This document shows, piece by piece, positions 17,899 through 63,623 of a stretch of 64,000 bases of DNA. Source of the stretch: an uncultured virus (IMG/VR IMGVR_UViG_3300017992_000735) (lineage: Duplodnaviria > Heunggongvirae > Uroviricota > Caudoviricetes). Position 1 is the stretch's first letter, and every line of letters starts with the position of its first letter. The DNA is taken from the IMG/VR virus record IMGVR_UViG_3300017992_000735, one strand, 5' to 3'. A model generated the notes under the pieces. It did not search any database. It saw only the letters and a list, made by a program, of their open reading frames with translations, and was not told where the DNA came from. A program made the translations under genes and the position numbers.

Positions 17899-18150
17899 TT
17901 AAAAATTTCTCAATGCAAACACTGGGTAGGTGACAGCTTTCTTACCCCCTCCCCCACCACATCCCCCACAGCTCCCCCTTTGGATTTTTACTTTTTGTAG
18001 GAGCCCGTGGATGTCTCTTTCATCAAGCTCCTCCCCAATTATTAGGCAGGGAGCATTGTGGTAGAACCTATAGATATTACCCGTCTCGGGTCCTTCGTAG
18101 ATGACAGAACCGCCTTTCGAGATGCCTCGTATGTAGCATAGCTTTTTCAA
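17899..18150 (-). CDS. Small structural-region protein with CGGC motif
   Basis: GPETGNIYRF..DERDIHGLL..RGSCGGCG; resembles the UGA-containing ORF 48222-48452. Confidence 0.65.
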   Translation of the reverse strand: MKKLCYIRGISKGGSVIYEGPETGNIYRFYHNAPCLIIGEELDERDIHGLLQKVKIQRGSCGGCGGGGGKKAVTYPVFALRNF

Positions 18151-29137: not shown

Positions 29138-30168
29138 GCTAACTCTCTGTACAGATCGTTGTACTTCTTAGCCATTATCCTCGCATCAAATAAATCTAAC
29201 GCTCGTTGTTTTCCTGCTTTAGCCATATCCAACCTAGGTTGTTCACACTCCAGTAAGGCCAAAATCGTATGAGCCCATGTTTGGCAATGATAATCTGCTT
29301 TGTGGTTGTCGTTCCAGTAGTTTGGAGATGGGAGGTAGATTGCATAGTCCCGAGCAATCTCAACATTGGTTGAACAATGTGAGCAGATCATTGGAACTTC
29401 GGCGCCAAGCATTTCCGCAGCCACTCGGCCGAACGCTTCTCCAAAGGTTGGAAATAGCCCCACATCCATTGCTCCGTAGGCTAGATCCTTTTCTCGTGTA
29501 CCCCCAGCAAACACCACCTCAGCTCCGAGTTCCTTGGCCAACTCTTTCGCGGGTTCATAGCCATCTTTATCGCCGAACATGATAAACTGGATGTTTGAGT
29601 CTACTTCCTGAACCCGCTTCGCGATCCCAATAGTAGTCCCCGGGCATTTGAAAGCGATGTACCTTCCCATCCAACCGACTACGAACTGGTTTGGGTTTAA
29701 CCCCCAGTGCTTTTTGGCTGCCCTTCTGTCTGCACACTGCAAGCGATCTATATCTACTCCATGATATATAAGTTTTGCACCGACTGGCTGTTTACTAAGC
29801 AATGATTGGCTTCCTGCCACAACAGCTACTAAACCCTCGTAATCACGGTGTATGGGTCCTGCGGTTCCTACAGTAGCAATGGCTGGAACTCCTAAACTGA
29901 GTGCTGTGTCTAAACTATCACATTTTGCATTCGCACCAGGTTGGGCGTGTACAATGTCAACAGTTTTGATAATCTCCCTTAACTCATCAAAGGAGACTTC
30001 TTTGTGATACTCAACTCCTAATTCTCTAAACTCAACTTCTGTTCTATCATCGTTGTGGTAGTTAGCAACTACAAATTGAAAATCTTTAGAGTATTTAATG
30101 AGATCTAAGGATAAGTCTGTTACACCCCCCAAACCTGAGCTTTGTGTAAAATGCAAGACTTTAGTCAT
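29134..30168 (-). CDS. Glycosyltransferase, GT4 family (tandem paralog)
   Basis: GLGG; EAFGRVAAEMLGAEVP. Confidence 0.88.
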   Translation of the reverse strand: MTKVLHFTQSSGLGGVTDLSLDLIKYSKDFQFVVANYHNDDRTEVEFRELGVEYHKEVSFDELREIIKTVDIVHAQPGANAKCDSLDTALSLGVPAIATVGTAGPIHRDYEGLVAVVAGSQSLLSKQPVGAKLIYHGVDIDRLQCADRRAAKKHWGLNPNQFVVGWMGRYIAFKCPGTTIGIAKRVQEVDSNIQFIMFGDKDGYEPAKELAKELGAEVVFAGGTREKDLAYGAMDVGLFPTFGEAFGRVAAEMLGAEVPMICSHCSTNVEIARDYAIYLPSPNYWNDNHKADYHCQTWAHTILALLECEQPRLDMAKAGKQRALDLFDARIMAKKYNDLYRELA

Positions 30169-30866
30169 GGCTTCCTGTAACCTCGAAGTAGTGTTGGAAC
30201 GTCTACAATGTTATAGCCAGGAGGTTTTTGCCATGATTCGGACAATAGTGGTATGTCCATTGGTTCGCAGTAGTGTGTATTTTCCATAATTTCCGTACAG
30301 GCTGAGTATACTCCCGAACTGACAGGTTTATTAAGCTTTACACTGGGCAGCACCCAGTCATGAAACACAATAACTCCACCCTTCCGTAGCATTGGGTAGT
30401 AATCCAGTATATCTTGCTTCACACATTCGTAGGAGTGTCCTCCATCTACAAATACTAAATCCAACCCCTCCTGCTCCCCCCGCACTCGCTTAGCAGCTTC
30501 ATGTGAGGGCATACTGACATGCGCAACTCGATCTTGTATTCTAGAGTAGACTCTATCAAAAGGAACGAATTGCGGAGCGGGGTCAATTGTGTACCCTCGA
30601 AAGTTGTCACCGAACGTTCGCTTCATGGCGGAATACATGAGCAAAGCAGACCCGCCCTCCCATGTACCAATATCTACAAATACCTTAGGAGTTGGAAGAG
30701 CGTTTAACATTTTGCAAACCACATACCAAAGACGGAAGCGATCTTGTACTGCCATTAGCACTTTGACACCTTGGTGTGTGGGATCATCTTCCATAAACGC
30801 ATTCAGTAGTTGCTGAGGAAGCTCTGGGTTAGTCTCAAACGGTGGCCCGTATCTTTCAGATAACAT
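30165..30866 (-). CDS. Class I SAM methyltransferase (Methyltransf_24-like)
   Basis: VDIGTWEGGS; DLVFVDGGHSYE; GGVIVFHD. Confidence 0.88.
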   Translation of the reverse strand: MLSERYGPPFETNPELPQQLLNAFMEDDPTHQGVKVLMAVQDRFRLWYVVCKMLNALPTPKVFVDIGTWEGGSALLMYSAMKRTFGDNFRGYTIDPAPQFVPFDRVYSRIQDRVAHVSMPSHEAAKRVRGEQEGLDLVFVDGGHSYECVKQDILDYYPMLRKGGVIVFHDWVLPSVKLNKPVSSGVYSACTEIMENTHYCEPMDIPLLSESWQKPPGYNIVDVPTLLRGYRKP

Positions 30867-46800: not shown

Positions 46801-47876
46801 AAAACACCCTCCACCTTGAATTCTGCAAGAGCCTCTTTCGTGATAGGATCTGCGTCTCCCCAATCAAACCCAACCCGTGCTAAGGCTGCTGGGTTTGATA
46901 ATCCTAGCCTGTGTTTTCCTATCACTACCCAATATGTATTCGACTCATCACTCACAAGGCGCGATCCACGTTCTTTGTGGTAGTGTCTAGGATCTGTCCA
47001 ATCAGCACAATCTATGGCTGCATGTTCGGCGTATTCAGCGTATTTTCCGATCTTATGTTTTTGGTCAATCTTGCCAATATTACAGTTTAGTTCTTCCCGC
47101 ATCTGTTGTTCCGGAGCATAACGAGCGTGCCACATATGGTACCCAATTAGTTTTTTGACTCGGAGAAACTTGTGGCGCTTCTCAACCGCAGTCATTGCTA
47201 GGTCACAGTCCTCCCCGCCATGCCCAATTAACTCCTCCCAAAATCCCCCACAATCCCAAAAAATATTTTTAGGATAAGCAATGTTACCCGAAAAACAACC
47301 CATCGCAGCAGCTAGCCCAACAGGAGTAGCGGGCCAGAGCTCAGGTTCTACCTCATCCGGAAAATCATTGTACCGAGGATCTTTTCTGCCTTTCAACGAG
47401 GCGTCAGGAGGCATGGGGAGTTTGGGGTAGTTCATTGACTCCAAGCGGAACCAGAAGTCTTTGTCATTCTTAAGGTTTTCAATCCCATACTCCATTCTCA
47501 GGAGGAAATGGTACAACCCGACGATAATACAGTCAGGATGCTGCGTGTGAAGGTCAGCGTACGTGCCGAGGATATGAGATGGCATTAGGTTGTCTGAGTC
47601 AATGAATAAGGCGAGAGAATAATCGGGGTTGGAGTTCGCTACACCGAAGTTGCGCGCCCGGGGTGCGCGGAAGCCTTGATGGGGCCCCGCACTCAGGTAC
47701 TTAAGAGGAATTCCATTTTCATCAGTTTTACCTCGCAACCACTCGAAAGTGCCGTCAGTTGAGCCGTCGTCTACAACGATAATCTCAAACTCTCGGTACT
47801 CTTGCATCCCCAGCGCTGCGAGGCAAAGTTCTAGGTTTTCTTTTCTATTGTAGGTTGGAACTACGACGGAGATCAC
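46797..47876 (-). CDS. Glycosyltransferase, GT2 family
   Basis: SVVVPTYNR; VDDGSTDGT; FIDSD; GGEDCDL. Confidence 0.92.
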   Translation of the reverse strand: MISVVVPTYNRKENLELCLAALGMQEYREFEIIVVDDGSTDGTFEWLRGKTDENGIPLKYLSAGPHQGFRAPRARNFGVANSNPDYSLALFIDSDNLMPSHILGTYADLHTQHPDCIIVGLYHFLLRMEYGIENLKNDKDFWFRLESMNYPKLPMPPDASLKGRKDPRYNDFPDEVEPELWPATPVGLAAAMGCFSGNIAYPKNIFWDCGGFWEELIGHGGEDCDLAMTAVEKRHKFLRVKKLIGYHMWHARYAPEQQMREELNCNIGKIDQKHKIGKYAEYAEHAAIDCADWTDPRHYHKERGSRLVSDESNTYWVVIGKHRLGLSNPAALARVGFDWGDADPITKEALAEFKVEGVL

Positions 47877-47898
47877 AGCCCCTCTCCTTCCCTCAGAA

Positions 47899-48234
47899 CT
47901 AGGTCTCGCCTGTTTGCAACTCCATGTACACACTTAGACCTTGGTTTCCTGCTGAAGCATTCACACGAAAAAGATTTGTATTATTTACAAGGCAATCCAG
48001 CTCATCTCCAGGACCAAGAGGATAATATGATTGCCGACTCTGGTCCCAAACGGCGATCCATTGACCAGCAGTATTCTGTGTCCACGCCTTAAGGACCACT
48101 CTCTTTGTTGGATACCCAGTAGGCACTCCGTTTACTTGTGGGCCATTGGGATCAATAGGCTCCGGATCTCCAGTTGTGATATTTCCGTGCCCCCATATCT
48201 TGATTCGATTAGTTGTGATTGCTAGTTTTGCCAT
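47899..48234 (-). CDS. Small beta-rich protein, possible capsid decoration
   Basis: Late-operon position; VVLKA..N....LGPGDE pattern. Confidence 0.45.
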   Translation of the reverse strand: MAKLAITTNRIKIWGHGNITTGDPEPIDPNGPQVNGVPTGYPTKRVVLKAWTQNTAGQWIAVWDQSRQSYYPLGPGDELDCLVNNTNLFRVNASAGNQGLSVYMELQTGET

Positions 48235-48452
48235 TCTACCTCACCAGATTCAACTTCTTCTTGTGTCCCGTAGAGCCGAACTCGGTCCGAATTATCCCCT
48301 CAGCCTTTCCGTTTCTTTGTCAACCCGAGCATCTGCTCAGCATCTACATCCCAGACATCCGCCCAAGGATTGAAAATGTAAAGCGTGTATGTGACGGGGC
48401 CGTACTCCTGCCTCCCGCTCCCCCAAAGGTATGCGATGTCAATTTTCCTCAT
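48222..48452 (-). CDS. Small late protein with in-frame UGA at codon 51 (candidate selenoprotein, 76 aa)
   Basis: Translated by hand: MRKIDIAYLWGSGRQEYGPVTYTLYIFNPWADVWDVDAEQMLGLTKKRKG*GDNSDRVRLYGTQEEVESGEVEWQN; overlaps both neighbours only if UGA is read through. Confidence 0.6.
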
Positions 48453-48678
48453 CTTTCTTTTTTACTGCCTTACCATTAAGCCTTCGCAAAACTTCTAGAA
48501 TTTCCCCCTGAGTTTGGGAGATACCGGCCATCTGATCCAGATACCGCTCCAACAGCGGGGCGAACCGCTCTATAATAATAACAACCACTTTATAGAAGAT
48601 ATATGCGTAGACTACACTGATAACAACAGCGCCCGATTGATAAACAAACAGTGCAGTCAACGGACTTAATTCTGTCAA
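48439..48678 (-). CDS. Small membrane protein (BhlA/holin-like)
   Basis: TTG start after GGGAG; one long TM segment then a helical region ending RLNGK. Confidence 0.5.
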   Translation of the reverse strand: MTELSPLTALFVYQSGAVVISVVYAYIFYKVVVIIIERFAPLLERYLDQMAGISQTQGEILEVLRRLNGKAVKKKDEEN

Positions 48679-48679
48679 C

Positions 48680-48901
48680 CTAGTCTCCCGCCATCCTAGC
48701 CAAGTCAGGGAACCGCTGCTCAAACTCATGGGATTTGTCTTTGACAGTCCACCCTGCCCCAACAAAGCGAATGATAGGAGTAGAAATAATTTTAGGACAA
48801 AGCCGGTGACACTTGGGACAGGGAGCAGTTGGAGAGGGGTTAAACAACTCCTCATAACTATCGAATAGACCATGCTCTTGGCAACGGTATTGGTAAACCA
48901 A
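48680..48901 (-). CDS. FmdB-family zinc-ribbon protein
   Basis: YQYRC..HG..CPKC..IIS.P.IRFVGAGW. Confidence 0.8.
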   Translation of the reverse strand: MVYQYRCQEHGLFDSYEELFNPSPTAPCPKCHRLCPKIISTPIIRFVGAGWTVKDKSHEFEQRFPDLARMAGD

Positions 48902-48913
48902 TGAAAATCTCCT

Positions 48914-48982
48914 TAAAAGGGATGGGATTGAGACTGAAAATGAAGTGGAGCTGAAAGGAGGGTTGTCTCAAATCCCATCCCT
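48914..48982 (-). promoter_or_regulatory. Leader hairpin / attenuator-like structure
   Basis: AGGGATGGGATT(T)GAGAC pairs with GTCTCAATCCCATCCCT; followed by TTT and the RBS. Confidence 0.6.
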
Positions 48983-48990
48983 CACACTCA

Positions 48991-49021
48991 ATTATATCAC
49001 AGATAGGGAGATAATCAAAAT
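48991..49021 (-). promoter_or_regulatory. Class II (putative late) promoter
   Basis: ATTTTGATT, 16 nt, TATAAT with extended -10 TG. Confidence 0.7.
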
Positions 49022-49024
49022 AAG

Positions 49025-49050
49025 AGCCCCGACCATTGCTGGTCGGGGCT
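49025..49050 (-). terminator. Intrinsic terminator ending the minus-strand early operon
   Basis: AGCCCCGACCA-4 nt-TGGTCGGGGCT, followed by CTTATTTT. Confidence 0.75.
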
Positions 49051-49088
49051 GTTGTGCGCCTTGTCGCCCCGTCGTGCTGCCGGTGGGG

Positions 49089-49304
49089 TTACTGCCAAGA
49101 TTCAAGGATCTTGGCATCCTTGATGCGAGCAAAAAGCCCGCATTTTAGGCATCGCGCTTCGTAGGAACCGTCATCATAAGTCAAGCTTCTCAAGAAACGA
49201 TGCCCGTCTCGCCGTGTAGCCGTCATATCGAGAGTATTCCTGTCCACTTCTTCTGTCGTTCCCATACATTGCTGTGCCATTTTTATTATCCTTTCAGAGT
49301 CCAC
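49089..49304 (-). CDS. Hypothetical protein (start uncertain)
   Basis: 71 aa, ARCLKCG. Confidence 0.5.
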   Translation of the reverse strand: MDSERIIKMAQQCMGTTEEVDRNTLDMTATRRDGHRFLRSLTYDDGSYEARCLKCGLFARIKDAKILESWQ

Positions 49305-49328
49305 TGGTGCAGGGGATCGCCCAGTGGT

Positions 49329-49665
49329 GAGCCTGAGATCCGCTCAGGCGTCGGGCAACCATTCTATTGGGGCGGAAAGTTGACCAGAGAAATACCGGGG
49401 AAAAAATATACAATATCCAACATTTCCCCTCTCTGATGACAATTCACCTCAATCGGCAGAACGTTGGTGAATTGGCGAATCGCCCAGTAGCGGCTGCCAG
49501 TGCCATGCACTAACAAGCCGGCTACACCCCCGATAGACACATCCCGGTCAGGACCTTTATCAGACCCTTTCTCCAATTTCAATTGAATCTGTTCTAATCC
49601 CATTGGACTCATAAACATTTTTTCCCTCTCCCTTCTTGAGAGCCTGAGAACCGCTCAGGCGTCGG
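49329..49665 (-). repeat. Two copies of a 26-nt intergenic hairpin repeat (49329-49354, 49640-49665)
   Basis: CCGACGCCTGAGCGG(A/T)TCTCAGGCTC, 25 of 26 nt identical. Confidence 0.85.
49364..49618 (-). CDS. Hypothetical protein
   Basis: GGGAGAGGG RBS; flanked by the hairpin repeats. Confidence 0.55.
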   Translation of the reverse strand: MFMSPMGLEQIQLKLEKGSDKGPDRDVSIGGVAGLLVHGTGSRYWAIRQFTNVLPIEVNCHQRGEMLDIVYFFPGISLVNFPPQ

Positions 49666-50019
49666 TACCAACAACTAACTGGTATTGTCTACAAAATATC
49701 CTCTTCGCACGATGTCTGGAACTGGGTAGGTACCAGAAGGCCTGGTCTTGGCTAACCACTTAGCGTAACATTCGTTGCACAAGTACTTCCCAACATCCGG
49801 CCGCCAGCGACCATCTGGATTCCCACATTCTCGGCAGTTCGACATTTTTAGCCCCCTCTCTCGATCAAGAATGATAACCGACCCCAACGATACCGATGAA
49901 TCTTATCTGCCCACAACCTTTGGCCAGGCTGCTTGCAGGCAATCATCCACCCATTGCGGTAAAGCCGATGGTTACCATGGTATGACGTGATTTTCCAGTT
50001 TCTCAGTTTGATCTCCATC

Positions 50020-53593: not shown

Positions 53594-53671
53594 GTCAGAA
53601 TGTCGGAACGGTAGACGAGCACGAGAGTGTGCCTGAATACGGGCGTGCAGGTTCGAATCCTGCTTCTGGCG
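53594..53671 (+). ncRNA. tRNA-like element (type II, Leu-like D arm) with the anticodon arm reduced to a GAGA tetraloop
   Basis: Acceptor GTCAGAA/TTCTGGC; D arm TCG-GAACGGTAGA-CGA; GCAC-GAGA-GTGT; variable arm GCCTG-AATA-CGGGC; T arm GCAGG-TTCGAAT-CCTGC. Confidence 0.8.
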
Positions 53672-58041: not shown

Positions 58042-59639
58042 CTAGGTGAATGAAGTGCCCCCGACGATGCTGCAGCCGGTGCCAAGGTGACCTGCAAAGC
58101 TTGCCGTGTAGGCGGCTTGCGCACACATATGCTTTCTAAATATCTTTGTTATCATAAAGGTGTTTAACCCTCTATTTCTTACTGTTACCAGTAAGCTCGG
58201 ACTATGTCTTCGCTCATTTCTGAACGCCCCGCGCTCGTGGGAGAATTATTGCCATACCTCTCGGTTCAGGCGCACTCCTAGTCTCTACACCCACCAAAAA
58301 GTTTCCCTTCTGGCTTGGCTCGGCGTTGTCCCAGTGGGAGTTTCGCCGAATTCACGGAGTTAAGTGACAAAGCGTTTATCACTAGTGCAGTCACCGCGTA
58401 GATTTCAAAGGCAAAAGCTGTACAGCCTCTTGGCAGATCTACATAACTTAATGGTGTTTGTGTACTCTTATACACAATAGGTTCTCCATTATGATAAACT
58501 CTTAATGGATACACCGTCGAGCTAAATATATCTGCCCCCGTCGTCGTGGCAGTGAACCGGAAGTCCGGAACCAGGATCAACTCTCCTACGAACGTCTGGA
58601 TTCTCGGAGCTAGCGTGAAGCCAGCCACGATGCCTCCGCGGTCCTGGTTGATCTGGATCATTTGGACGGGCTGTGTCCCTCCGGTGGCGCCCAAGCTCAG
58701 GTAGCCGATAGCGATGGCTCGGAGAGCTTTGGGGTGACCGAAGATGTGGGTGGGTCTTGCACACCCAGCAGCGAGGAAGTTGTCGAACTCTTCCTCGTCA
58801 TAGGTCCCGGTCGGGTTGCTGTTGGTCCGCGCACCGTTTGCAGATGTGACTTGGGTCTCGATCCCGTCGAAAGCGTTCGCAACTGTAGCGATTGCTCCCT
58901 TGACCAGGGCGAGGTCCCACTTGTTCAGCACAGTCACTTCCTGGAGTTTCATCATCTTCTCTTTGACTCCGATCACTGTTTCGATTCCAGAGTCTAGAGA
59001 AAGTCGGCTGATCCCCAATCCCTGCGCGCGTGCGACTGCTATCGAGTGACGTAAGTCCTCGTAGGTGATAGACTCATAACTGCCGATGTACTTGCGGGCA
59101 ATTGTAGTCGTCTCACCCTCATGCGTGGTCTCGTCCGGACAAGCTCCTTTAGTGAAGAAGCCATGGGACGCCTCCCCCGTGGTGTCGAAGCTCAGGCTGG
59201 TCATCTCTCGCCAGCTATCTGAGTTGTAATCGGTCACCACTTCAGGCAACGTCTTCCAGACTGTGATCTCCTCACACATGTCCAAAACCTCAGTCGGATC
59301 TAGAGGCTGAGGATACTGGTTAGAGAAGTCTGCGGGCTGCGTATAGGGCTGAGGCAGGATATTTGGGTCGGTTTGGGTCTTCTCAACCATTCCCTTGATG
59401 ACTTCCACAGCGGGATCGCCTTCCGGCTCCGGCTGGTTCAGGTTCTCATAAACAGACTGAGCAACCTGCTGCATCTCGGTCATGGTCAAGTCCTCGCCGC
59501 CCTTAGCCTCTCGCACCTGTAACACGGCCCTAGCAACAATGTCCTCGATGTTCGGACCTTCGGCAGGTTCACGACGACCTGCGATGTCGGCGGCACTCTT
59601 GGTCACGATATCGGTAATCGTAGGAACCAAGAGTTCCAC
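58042..59639 (-). CDS. Major capsid protein, spliced: exon 1 59639-58378, exon 2 58135-58042 (451 aa)
   Basis: Follows the protease gene; AFDGIETQV and PTHIFGHP capsid-like motifs; splicing restores ...TALVIKHMCAQAAYTASFAGHLGTGCSIVGGTSFT. Confidence 0.85.
58136..58377 (-). mobile_element. Group I intron (242 nt, no internal ORF)
   Basis: P GAATTCGGCGAAAC, Q ACGCCGAGCCAAG, R GTGTAGAGACTA, S AAGACATAGTCC; P1 AGTGAT/GTCACT with U.G pair; P10 GCTTT/AAAGC; terminal G. Confidence 0.92.
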
Positions 59640-61990: not shown

Positions 61991-62241
61991 CACACCTTAT
62001 ACCCCCACCTGCCAGGATTCTGCAAAAACTCCTCAGCGTTCTCCAGAGAGCCCCCCTCCAACCACAACATATTATCCCCTAGCCCCTCCTCAGACTCCAA
62101 AACCTCAGAAGTAACCTCGCGGGATGTATTGATAATCTCAGTTACATCCTCCTCAAAAGGACCAGTTACCACAACCTGATCTGGGGCGATATCCACAGTT
62201 GCAGCATATTCACCATCTAGTCTATATACCTTCACTTCCAC
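61990..62241 (-). CDS. Small acidic hypothetical protein
   Basis: GGAGGA RBS; overlaps the end of the peptidase ORF. Confidence 0.6.
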   Translation of the reverse strand: MEVKVYRLDGEYAATVDIAPDQVVVTGPFEEDVTEIINTSREVTSEVLESEEGLGDNMLWLEGGSLENAEEFLQNPGRWGYKV

Positions 62242-63623
62242 TCCTCCGGCATTCTATCACCAAGGACAGCTCCCACCATCTCATGTGATTCCGGAAAATA
62301 ATGCTTATAGAAACCCACTTCCCTTTTATTCGAGTACCTTTTCACACATTCTATACTCTCTGCAAAGAATTCCCGCTCTGTTTTCTTTGCATAGTTCGTA
62401 GGAAACCGATCAAAAAGCCAGGCTCGGTCGTACGGATTATCTTTTGCCCGAATCACCTTGGATGACTTAGCCACTCCCTTCGTTTCACTCAGTGTGTAAT
62501 CCAGCGCATGTCCCCACTCATGCCAAACTGTGCCATAACTGGCAAACCCCTGAGGTGTGTCTAGGTTAGCAGATGTTTGCGGCCCAAAAACAATTTCATC
62601 TGTGTACACCCTGTAAAATCCAGCGCAACCCCTAGCCGAACCTCCATATACGCGATCGAATTCTTCTTGGGTTTTTGTTGTGATAAAAGTAACCTCAGTA
62701 TCGGGTTGAGGCATCCCTTGCAGACTGTATGCTATCTCAGTAGCTTGGTTCTTTGTAACACGCGAACCCACACGGTGCCCACCAGTAGCCTCCTCAAACT
62801 TACTCCTATAGTTGTCATCAGTCCAATCAACAGTACTAACCTTTCCCACAACAGCGGGCGCCTTACTGGGAGCACTTCCCCCTCTCCTGCCCTTGCGCCC
62901 TTTGTGACCCCAATGACCACTTCCAGGCCCGCCTTTCTCAACCTCTGACTTGCCTACGTAGAATTCAATCTCTTTTCCTAACCCTGCGATCTCCGACGGA
63001 GTCGCTGCCAAGTGGCACCTTCAGACGTTCGGGTGAGCTGGCGGCCCACCACACTTTTCTCCAAAAACGTTATCAAAGGTCTTCGAGTTAACCGGCTGGG
63101 GACCCATCGCCTCATTAGCCTTACAGACCTCACATGCGTCCGCTCCAATGGTCACCCATCGCTTTGTTTCAAGGCCGACTTCGTCCATCTGCTTTTCCCA
63201 AGCAGAAGACTGGGCACGAGCAATTTCAAACCGAGTGATCGAGCGGATCCTTTGCTCACTAAACTCGCTCTGCTCGAATAAATTTTTAAAAATTCCGTCT
63301 ATCAGGTCTTGTTCGGGGATCCCTTCTTGGAGACCGTTGTAGATCATAGTGCGGAGGTAGTGTTTGGTTCCTCTGTTGACGTTTCGAACCATCTCTGCTG
63401 CTCTGTCTTGAATAAATTCCAGAGCAACAGGATCTACCAGGTCAAAAGCCAACTCAATTGCTACCCCAGCCAGCTCTCCGATGTACTCTGCTGCCCCTTC
63501 TAGCCCGTCTAAGTAAGCCAGAGTTAACGCTGCAATGAGTTCGTCAGAAACGTCTATTGACCAAAACTCTTCTGAGTCGTCTAGGATCTCATCTATTCGG
63601 TCCCACAGTTCTTCGTCAGCCAC
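62232..63623 (-). CDS. MuF (SPP1 gp7-like) head morphogenesis protein, fused by UGA readthrough (63021-63023) to a zinc metallopeptidase domain (463 aa if read through)
   Basis: RIRSITRFEIARA; KRW..ACEVC; PPAHPNV*RC; in-frame continuation with HEWGH and NYAKKTEREFFAE. Confidence 0.75.

Follow-up and report, generated by a model that had tools for sequence, protein, structure and literature searches.

The Small Gene and Its In-Frame UGA

We analyzed a 64,000-nucleotide stretch of DNA from an uncultured virus of the Caudoviricetes (IMG/VR record IMGVR_UViG_3300017992_000735), hereafter the window, with regard to a small minus-strand gene that carries an in-frame UGA. The gene begins with the ATG at position 48452, and its first 50 codons (48303..48452, minus strand) encode MRKIDIAYLWGSGRQEYGPVTYTLYIFNPWADVWDVDAEQMLGLTKKRKG, which is called as a 50-residue protein. 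Codon 51 is TGA (48300..48302) and is a candidate selenocysteine (Sec) codon, located at the first cysteine (Cys) of the C-x-C motif of the family described below. It is followed by a tail of 25 open codons, GDNSDRVRLYGTQEEVESGEVEWQN (48225..48299), which would be translated only with the UGA decoded, and by the TAG that closes the read-through frame in the sequence (48222..48224). The frame, the TGA, the tail and the TAG all lie at the positions given in a first-pass annotation of this DNA. A candidate hairpin resembling a Sec insertion sequence (SECIS), GGACCG-AGUU-CGG(C)UCU (48272..48288, minus strand), starts 11 nt past the UGA, with its loop at 17 nt.

The next gene on the minus strand (47899..48234, ATG at 48234) encodes 111 residues and had no Pfam or PHROG family match. 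Its Shine-Dalgarno-like sequence GGTGAGG, as read from the sequence (48239..48245, minus strand), lies inside the tail. The read-through form of the small gene overlaps this gene by 13 nt and the 50-residue form leaves a gap of 65 nt; the two genes overlap only on read-through, as had been stated earlier. The tail contains no in-frame ATG, GTG or TTG, and separate initiation within it was therefore dropped as an explanation. A frameshift was also rejected, because the homology described below runs on in the zero frame.

A record of the phage that is rated complete (G001; 108,853 bp, with terminal repeats) is identical to the window over the 461 bases compared around the small gene. The phage occurs in sequencing runs of metagenomes from sediment, seawater, marsh and estuary, among which no RNA run is listed.

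Homologues Continue across the UGA

A word-indexed search returned only relatives of 50-51 residues. An exhaustive HMMER search with the read-through sequence added P0016 (91 residues), P0018 (87 residues) and P0019 (77 residues), which align to query residues 3-73, 14-72 and 5-73, respectively, and thus across the UGA. After the profile search, the family comprised 16 members, seven short forms and nine long forms (profile E-values of 1e-31 to 3e-16). P0017 (2,051 residues), with four short matches to query residues 5-29, was excluded from all alignments as a repeat-type chance match.

The short forms are the window protein and six relatives (P0002, P0003, P0015, P0026, P0027 and P0028) at 62-79% identity. 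The six relatives are located on separate contigs of differing size (JGI, ENA, Logan), that of P0028 being 116 kb long. All seven short forms are called as proteins of 50-51 residues, which end directly after the Gly preceding the Cys column, and the six relatives probably also use TGA there. These called ends do not decide between the possibilities, since a gene caller reports the same end for a recoded UGA and for a true stop. The long forms have 77-104 residues. At the UGA site, six of them have G-C-G-C-N, and S-C-G-C-N, G-C-A-C-N and G-G-C-C-N occur once each. Cys therefore stands exactly at the UGA column in eight of the nine, and in the ninth, G-G-C-C-N, it is shifted by one. The corresponding site of the window is G-UGA-G-D-N.

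All 16 members share G18, Y25, F27, P29, V33 and D37, and P19 and G50 are almost as constant. The N-terminal core G-P-x-x-Y...Y-x-F-x-P-W...V-x-x-x-D is present in the window protein. The second part of the family pattern, G-C-x-C-N with the tail [FY]-[AG]-x-x-x-[DE]-[IV]-x-x-G...W, is matched only when the UGA is read, as G-U-G-D-N...LYGTQEEVESGEVEW. The first-pass annotation had proposed to check whether the sequence is conserved before and after the UGA and whether relatives have Cys in that column, and the nine longer homologues display both; the tail alone also matches their C-termini, as described below. The opposite outcome, homologues that end at this position, is seen in the close relatives as called proteins, whereas the nine longer homologues continue.

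Pfam and PHROG profiles gave no family match for the window protein or for any of the nine long homologues. Judged from the alignments, the small gene belongs to a previously undescribed and unnamed family of small phage proteins with a C-x-C motif. When collections of metagenomes, viruses and genomes were scanned for the pattern of the 50-residue alignment, only identical copies and spurious short matches were returned, and scans with P0028 and P0027 gave nothing usable. Scans with the downstream 111-residue gene, the MuF-like gene and the family of 83-residue proteins (both described below) found only the same 108.8-kb phage. Against GenBank phages, tblastn gave no match for the small protein, P0018 or the MuF-like protein, and blastn gave none for positions 47000-50000.

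Conservation of the Tail

To compare the tail by itself, a hidden Markov model (HMM) was built from the C-termini of the nine long forms only, with the Cys column left out. The 25-residue tail scored 15.8 bits against this model and ranked above 2,000 shuffles (next, 10.8 bits). It was also the top match among 1,915 six-frame stop-to-stop peptides of at least 20 residues from the window (E 0.0011; next, 5.9 bits). In the alignment of the tail with the long forms, the segment RVRLYGTQEEVESGEVE-W pairs with QMRVFGSEEEVRTGQVEAHW of P0019. Over the N-terminal part, the window protein is 33-54% identical to the nine long forms; over the tail, the figure is 24-42%. On these alignments, the tail appears to be about as conserved as the N-terminal part, which is certainly translated.

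In a maximum-likelihood tree of the N-terminal parts, the seven short forms and the Cys form P0019 were placed on one side of a branch supported at 99/99. A tree in which the seven short forms were held as one clade was not rejected (p = 0.42 in the approximately unbiased test, p-AU). A stop common to forms at 62-79% identity should be old, and an untranslated tail should by now have lost its resemblance to the long forms. Yet the tail is still recognizable, which suggests that it is translated. The combination of an old stop with a still-conserved tail, the latter seen in this phage and in one variant, thus argues for a decoded UGA.

For the variant, contigs of four further runs were compared over positions 47900-48900; none of the pieces listed covers approximately 48334-48403. 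One variant contig of 151 nt covers 48185-48333 with seven differences, none of which lies in 48255-48333, so that the TGA and the hairpin are unchanged in it. The TGA is also unchanged in the identical copies. Five of the seven differences are found at 48246-48254, where, in the read-through frame, GTT is replaced by ATC (V to I), GAA by GAG (synonymous) and TCT by GCA (S to A). The Ile of the variant is the commonest residue at that position in the long forms, and three of the five tail substitutions are at third codon positions. The changes are compatible with coding constraint and are too few to prove it. These five substitutions are packed into 9 nt immediately ahead of the ribosome-binding site of the downstream gene. 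No substitution is present in the 79 nt at 48255-48333, although elsewhere in 47900-48900 the variant contigs diverge by about 1-6%.

The read-through protein was modeled with AlphaFold2 from the 16-row alignment (mean predicted local distance difference test score, pLDDT, 74.9; predicted template modeling score, pTM, 0.61). In the model, the tail contributes strands at residues 57-59 and 61-63 and a helix at 64-69, and the pLDDT is 87 for residues 61-70. If this model is right, the 50-residue form would lack part of the fold. Foldseek matched the model to no PDB structure at E <= 0.001, and an ESM Atlas search with P0018 gave no usable match.

Relationship to the 83-Residue Protein

The first-pass annotation had noted a resemblance of the small protein to the product of the open reading frame (ORF) at 17899..18150 (minus strand). 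This ORF lies among the neck and head-tail genes and encodes an 83-residue protein with four Cys, which belongs to an 11-member family. In this family, C5, C35, C61 and C64 are invariant and a Y-P-[VM]-F motif is present at the C-terminus; Pfam and PHROG profiles gave no match for it. BLASTP of this protein against the read-through protein produced no alignment, and a profile of the 50-residue forms compared with the 83-residue family gave a probability of 0.4%. With the profile of the full-length homologues, hhalign gave a probability of 85% (E 6.2e-6, 48 columns). The alignment pairs G-P..Y.F..P, D..D, the Cys pair and P-x-F-A, and it places the UGA column on the invariant C61 of a C-x-x-C. 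The window protein is not a member of the 83-residue family: it has no counterpart of C5, which falls beyond the alignment, and has Trp in the place of C35. The proposed kinship is thus real but distant, and the newly defined small protein family has a paralogue in the same genome.

An In-Frame UGA in the MuF-Like Gene

A MuF-like head-morphogenesis gene of the window (62232..63623, minus strand) has an in-frame TGA at 63021-63023 in the context ..PPAHPNV-UGA-RCHL.., followed by 262 codons. PHROG families of head-morphogenesis and minor-head proteins span this stop, which is at residue 201 (phrog_2468, residues 21-218; phrog_4728, residues 90-380). In the alignment with Mu F and SPP1 gp7, the UGA occupies the first Cys of an invariant N-C-R-C. 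The first UGA, to which the earlier proposal referred, is thus likewise located on an invariant Cys. We observed that the 262 codons past the UGA include an HExxH-like stretch, W-H-E-W-G-H.

The hairpin of this gene, GCGACUCC-GUC-GGAG(A)UCGC (62986..63005, minus strand), has a loop that begins 23 nt past the UGA. Its energy is -9.0 kcal/mol, or -13.4 kcal/mol with the lower stem, and about 4% of random TGAs reach -12 kcal/mol or lower. The bacterial SECIS (bSECIS) model, as set out in PMC13188914, has an apical loop of 3-9 nt, an upper stem of 4-16 bp, a G in the first two loop positions and a spacing of 16-37 nt, and its energy cut-off is -7.5 kcal/mol or lower. The MuF hairpin passes all four published bSECIS criteria. 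The MuF-like gene is a stronger Sec candidate than the small gene.

Cys makes up 14% of the codons that are one mutation from TGA in this phage. The chance that two unrelated nonsense mutations both hit Cys is about 2%, before it is required that each Cys be the first of a conserved C-x-C. The complete genome, in which the two genes are on the plus strand, has 30 plus-strand TGA read-through candidates, including these two. A PHROG scan of 18 of the other 28 candidates found no family spanning the stop.

The Hairpin of the Small Gene

The loop of the small-gene hairpin is AGUU, with a G as its second base, and begins 17 nt past the UGA, so that the loop, the position of the G and the spacing are within the bSECIS model. 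The upper stem has 3 bp before the bulge, and the stem has 6 bp in all. The cut-off model is satisfied by chance in 9 of 59 TGA-ending ORFs. We also defined a narrower class of hairpins, with a stem of at least 5 bp, a loop of 3-6 nt containing GU and located 14-28 nt downstream, and an energy of -4 kcal/mol or lower. Hairpins of this class follow both UGAs, 34 of 800 random TGAs and 3 of the 59 TGA-ending ORFs of the complete phage (the MuF-like gene included). Since the class was defined after both hairpins had been seen, it is a lead and not a test. Rfam gave no match at the gathering threshold at either UGA.

tRNA-Like Genes of the Phage

Four tRNA-like genes are present in the phage, and the UCA anticodon is absent from all of them. 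The one in the window (53594-53671, plus strand, 78 nt) matched the tRNA model RF00005 with 31.9 bits and is the best match of the phage to the tRNA-Sec model (22 bits), but is not among the genes called by ARAGORN. It has well-formed acceptor, D and T arms, and a normal anticodon arm is replaced by the two small hairpins GCAC-GAGA-GUGU and GCCUG-AAUA-CGGGC. The flanks of this gene extend the acceptor helix to 10 bp.

The other three tRNA genes are outside the window (L016 1377-1989, corresponding to G001 29876-30488) and match RF00005 with 29.6-46.8 bits. They carry insertions of 35-51 nt in the anticodon arm, and ARAGORN with introns reads their anticodons as CAU, AGG and UGA. A sequence complementary to the anticodon loop occurs twice in one of the insertions, and two of the three tRNAs have an 8-bp acceptor stem in the ARAGORN drawing. 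In a bacterial phage, short introns in tRNA genes are unusual. Because of these short insertions, an archaeal host was considered, in which case the SECIS would be in the 3' untranslated region.

Two tandem hairpin elements of about 64-74 nt are found next to these genes (L016 1990-2137, corresponding to G001 30489-30636). They contain the motifs GGUUAUC and CAACAACUU/AAUAUUU, which recur inside the tRNA insertions, and a nematode small RNA model matched them at chance level (38.5 and 30 bits). The tandem elements and the tRNA insertions may constitute a family of small structured inserts.

Gene Context

The small gene borders, on the upstream side, a block of glycosyltransferase, methyltransferase and sugar-nucleotide genes that is about 24 kb long (21980-47933, minus strand). 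The block contains at least seven glycosyltransferases, methyltransferases, one nucleotide-sugar epimerase and three cytidylyltransferase-like genes, and it is located between the MuF region and the genes for the head-tail adaptor and neck. A glycosylation island of this size is very large for a 109-kb phage. An ESM Atlas look-up with the neighboring epimerase returned mostly bacterial and phage clusters and gave no clue to the host. The label "late gene" that the small gene had been given is plausible. A group I intron match (RF00028, 58178-58506, minus strand; 63.8 bits, E 7e-14) was observed at the 3' end of the ORF at 58278..59639, which itself had no Pfam or PHROG family match.

Interpretation of the Two UGAs

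We consider that decoding of the small-gene UGA, rather than termination at it, is the best reading, with a probability of roughly 0.7. The assignment of the inserted residue to Sec is putative, at about even odds. Sec is the most likely residue because a conserved Cys is replaced at both UGAs and because the MuF site agrees with the bSECIS model. Under this reading, the gene at 48452..48222 (minus strand) would encode a protein of 76 residues, in which the UGA at codon 51 is decoded, most likely as Sec, and the Sec would stand in for the first Cys of the conserved C-x-C of the family. The Sec would be supplied by the SelB and Sec-tRNA(Sec) of the host, and the 50-residue fragment would be set free wherever release factor 2 outcompetes Sec insertion. 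The MuF-like gene would do likewise, with its UGA in place of the first Cys of N-C-R-C. The phage would then have two genes with Sec for Cys and would rely on a Sec-competent host. The whole picture, with at least two phage selenoproteins (the MuF-like protein and the small C-x-C protein), Sec at the first Cys of each C-x-C and the Sec form of the small protein fixed in a clade of related phages, is tentative and falls slightly short of an even chance.

Several observations weigh against Sec decoding of the small gene. Its hairpin, described in the first-pass annotation and indeed present at 48272-48288 with its loop 17 nt past the UGA, is weak (-4.0 kcal/mol) and absent from the minimum-energy fold of 48235-48305. 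The fold of this region is no better than that of shuffles (z = +0.17; 111 of 200 fold as well). No qualifying hairpin at -7.5 kcal/mol or lower was found after the small-gene UGA, which therefore fails the bSECIS energy criterion. Under loose bSECIS-type criteria, the best hairpin there has -6.1 kcal/mol; of 400 random TGAs, 24.5% are followed by one of -6.0 kcal/mol or lower. In the complete 108,853-bp phage, no tRNA-Sec above the family cut-off and no selA, selB or selD was found, so that the machinery for decoding would have to come from the host. The window has Asp instead of the second Cys of the motif (G-U-G-D-N), and the motif is thus not simply conserved. The six diverged relatives are known as called proteins, and the TGA and the tail are read only in this phage and in one near variant. 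In the window, at least 25 open codons follow the stop of 17 of the 59 minus-strand ORFs of at least 100 residues, and of 7 of the 25 that end in TGA; by length alone, the openness of the tail is at chance level. Finally, the tail includes the ribosome-binding site of the downstream gene, and this site alone could constrain a few bases.

Alternatively, the UGA could be a true stop. The functional product would then be the 50-residue protein, and the tail would be a decaying ancestral remnant that has stayed open fortuitously, with some constraint from the GGTGAGG of the downstream gene. The common call of all seven close forms as 50-51 residues, the tails of the same length after other ORFs, the weak hairpin in an unremarkable local fold and the lack of Sec machinery in the phage agree with such a stop. 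However, the tail still shows homology to the long-form C-termini, with an identity close to that of the N-terminal part, is part of the predicted fold, and has no start codon in frame from which it could be translated separately. Moreover, the stop is common to forms at 62-79% identity and falls on a conserved Cys, as does the stop of the MuF-like gene. We therefore regard a true stop as rather unlikely.

Decoding of the UGA as another residue would be supported just as well by the comparative evidence that the tail is translated. This could occur by low-level read-through with a tRNA for Trp or Cys, which would give a minor long form beside a major short form, or by a dedicated system that converts UGA to Cys. 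Mukai et al. are said to have described in 2017 such a decoding of UGA as Cys by a tRNA-Sec-like tRNA(Cys). No strong SECIS and no selenium pathway of the host would be needed, and the weak hairpin of the small gene fits this explanation. On the other hand, both UGAs replace a conserved Cys, where Trp would probably spoil the motif, none of the four phage tRNA-like genes has a UCA anticodon, and the MuF hairpin fits the bSECIS model. Decoding as a residue other than Sec is in our estimation improbable. A genome-wide use of TGA as a sense codon (translation tables 4 or 25, or recoding of stops in late genes) could account for two in-frame TGAs in genes of the structural region. It is close to refuted: gene density is high under table 11, and ORFs of at least 100 residues end in TGA more often than in any other stop (45 of 107 on the plus strand of the complete genome and 25 of 59 on the minus strand of the window), so that a general change of the code is not the explanation. 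In addition, the 18 further TGA candidates scanned against PHROGs gave no family spanning the stop, and the columns concerned are Cys, not Trp or Gly.

With respect to Sec decoding, the argument of the first-pass annotation from two UGA-for-Cys events thus stands in part. Both UGAs are on a conserved Cys with homology across them, whereas the small hairpin misses the bSECIS energy and the phage has no Sec machinery of its own. The "small phage selenoproteome" suggested there has two candidate genes at present and no more, with Sec as the putative residue in each and the small hairpin as a candidate SECIS.

If the UGA is Sec, this would be a rare case of a phage selenoprotein. Phrases for a phage selenoprotein were found in none of 8.4 million papers, a broader term search listed no paper with such a subject in its title or the beginning of its abstract, and in the records returned the term "viral selenoprotein" was used only for eukaryotic viruses. 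The words phage, virus and viral are absent from the available text of a 2026 review of the prokaryotic selenoproteome. Phages would then be clients of the Sec machinery of their hosts for lineage-specific proteins of their own. Gene callers would systematically truncate such genes, as all seven members of the clade are recorded as stubs of 50-51 residues. A requirement for Sec would predict host range, and selenium supply might be linked to phage production in sediments. If both proteins are selenoproteins, the phages would need a Sec-competent host and selenium to build their particles.

Comparison with Known Systems

The small gene resembles the bacterial selenoprotein genes with a SECIS inside the ORF, for which fdhF of E. 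coli is the paradigm, in that the UGA is at the Cys column of the homologues and coding homology is present on both sides of it. It also shares with the bSECIS, as described in PMC13188914, a small hairpin, a G followed by U in the apical loop and a spacing of 17 nt, which is within the range of 16-37 nt. Unlike the bacterial selenoprotein genes, it has a hairpin of -4.0 kcal/mol instead of -7.5 kcal/mol or lower, is a phage gene, belongs to a tiny family that is not a known oxidoreductase, and is not linked to Sec machinery.

Within the same phage, the small gene and the MuF-like gene are alike in having UGA for the first Cys of a C-x-C, followed by a hairpin with a GU-containing loop and a single bulge on the 3' side. 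The MuF-like gene differs in that its hairpin is much stronger (-9 to -13.4 kcal/mol) and agrees with all four bSECIS criteria, and in that known families (PHROGs, Mu F and SPP1 gp7) provide the homology across its stop.

In phage Q-beta, the UGA of the coat protein gene is read through with Trp to give the extended A1 protein. There, some of the ribosomes pass the UGA and a C-terminally extended product is formed beside a short one, as is proposed here for the small gene. However, the Trp of Q-beta is inserted at a non-conserved position and the extension is a separate domain, whereas in the small gene the site is that of a conserved Cys and the tail would complete one small predicted fold.

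The glutathione peroxidases of poxviruses are selenoproteins of eukaryotic viruses. As proposed for the small gene, these viruses borrow the Sec insertion machinery of the host. The poxvirus enzymes are encoded by captured host genes with a eukaryotic SECIS, whereas the small gene represents a phage-specific family with an arrangement of the bacterial style.

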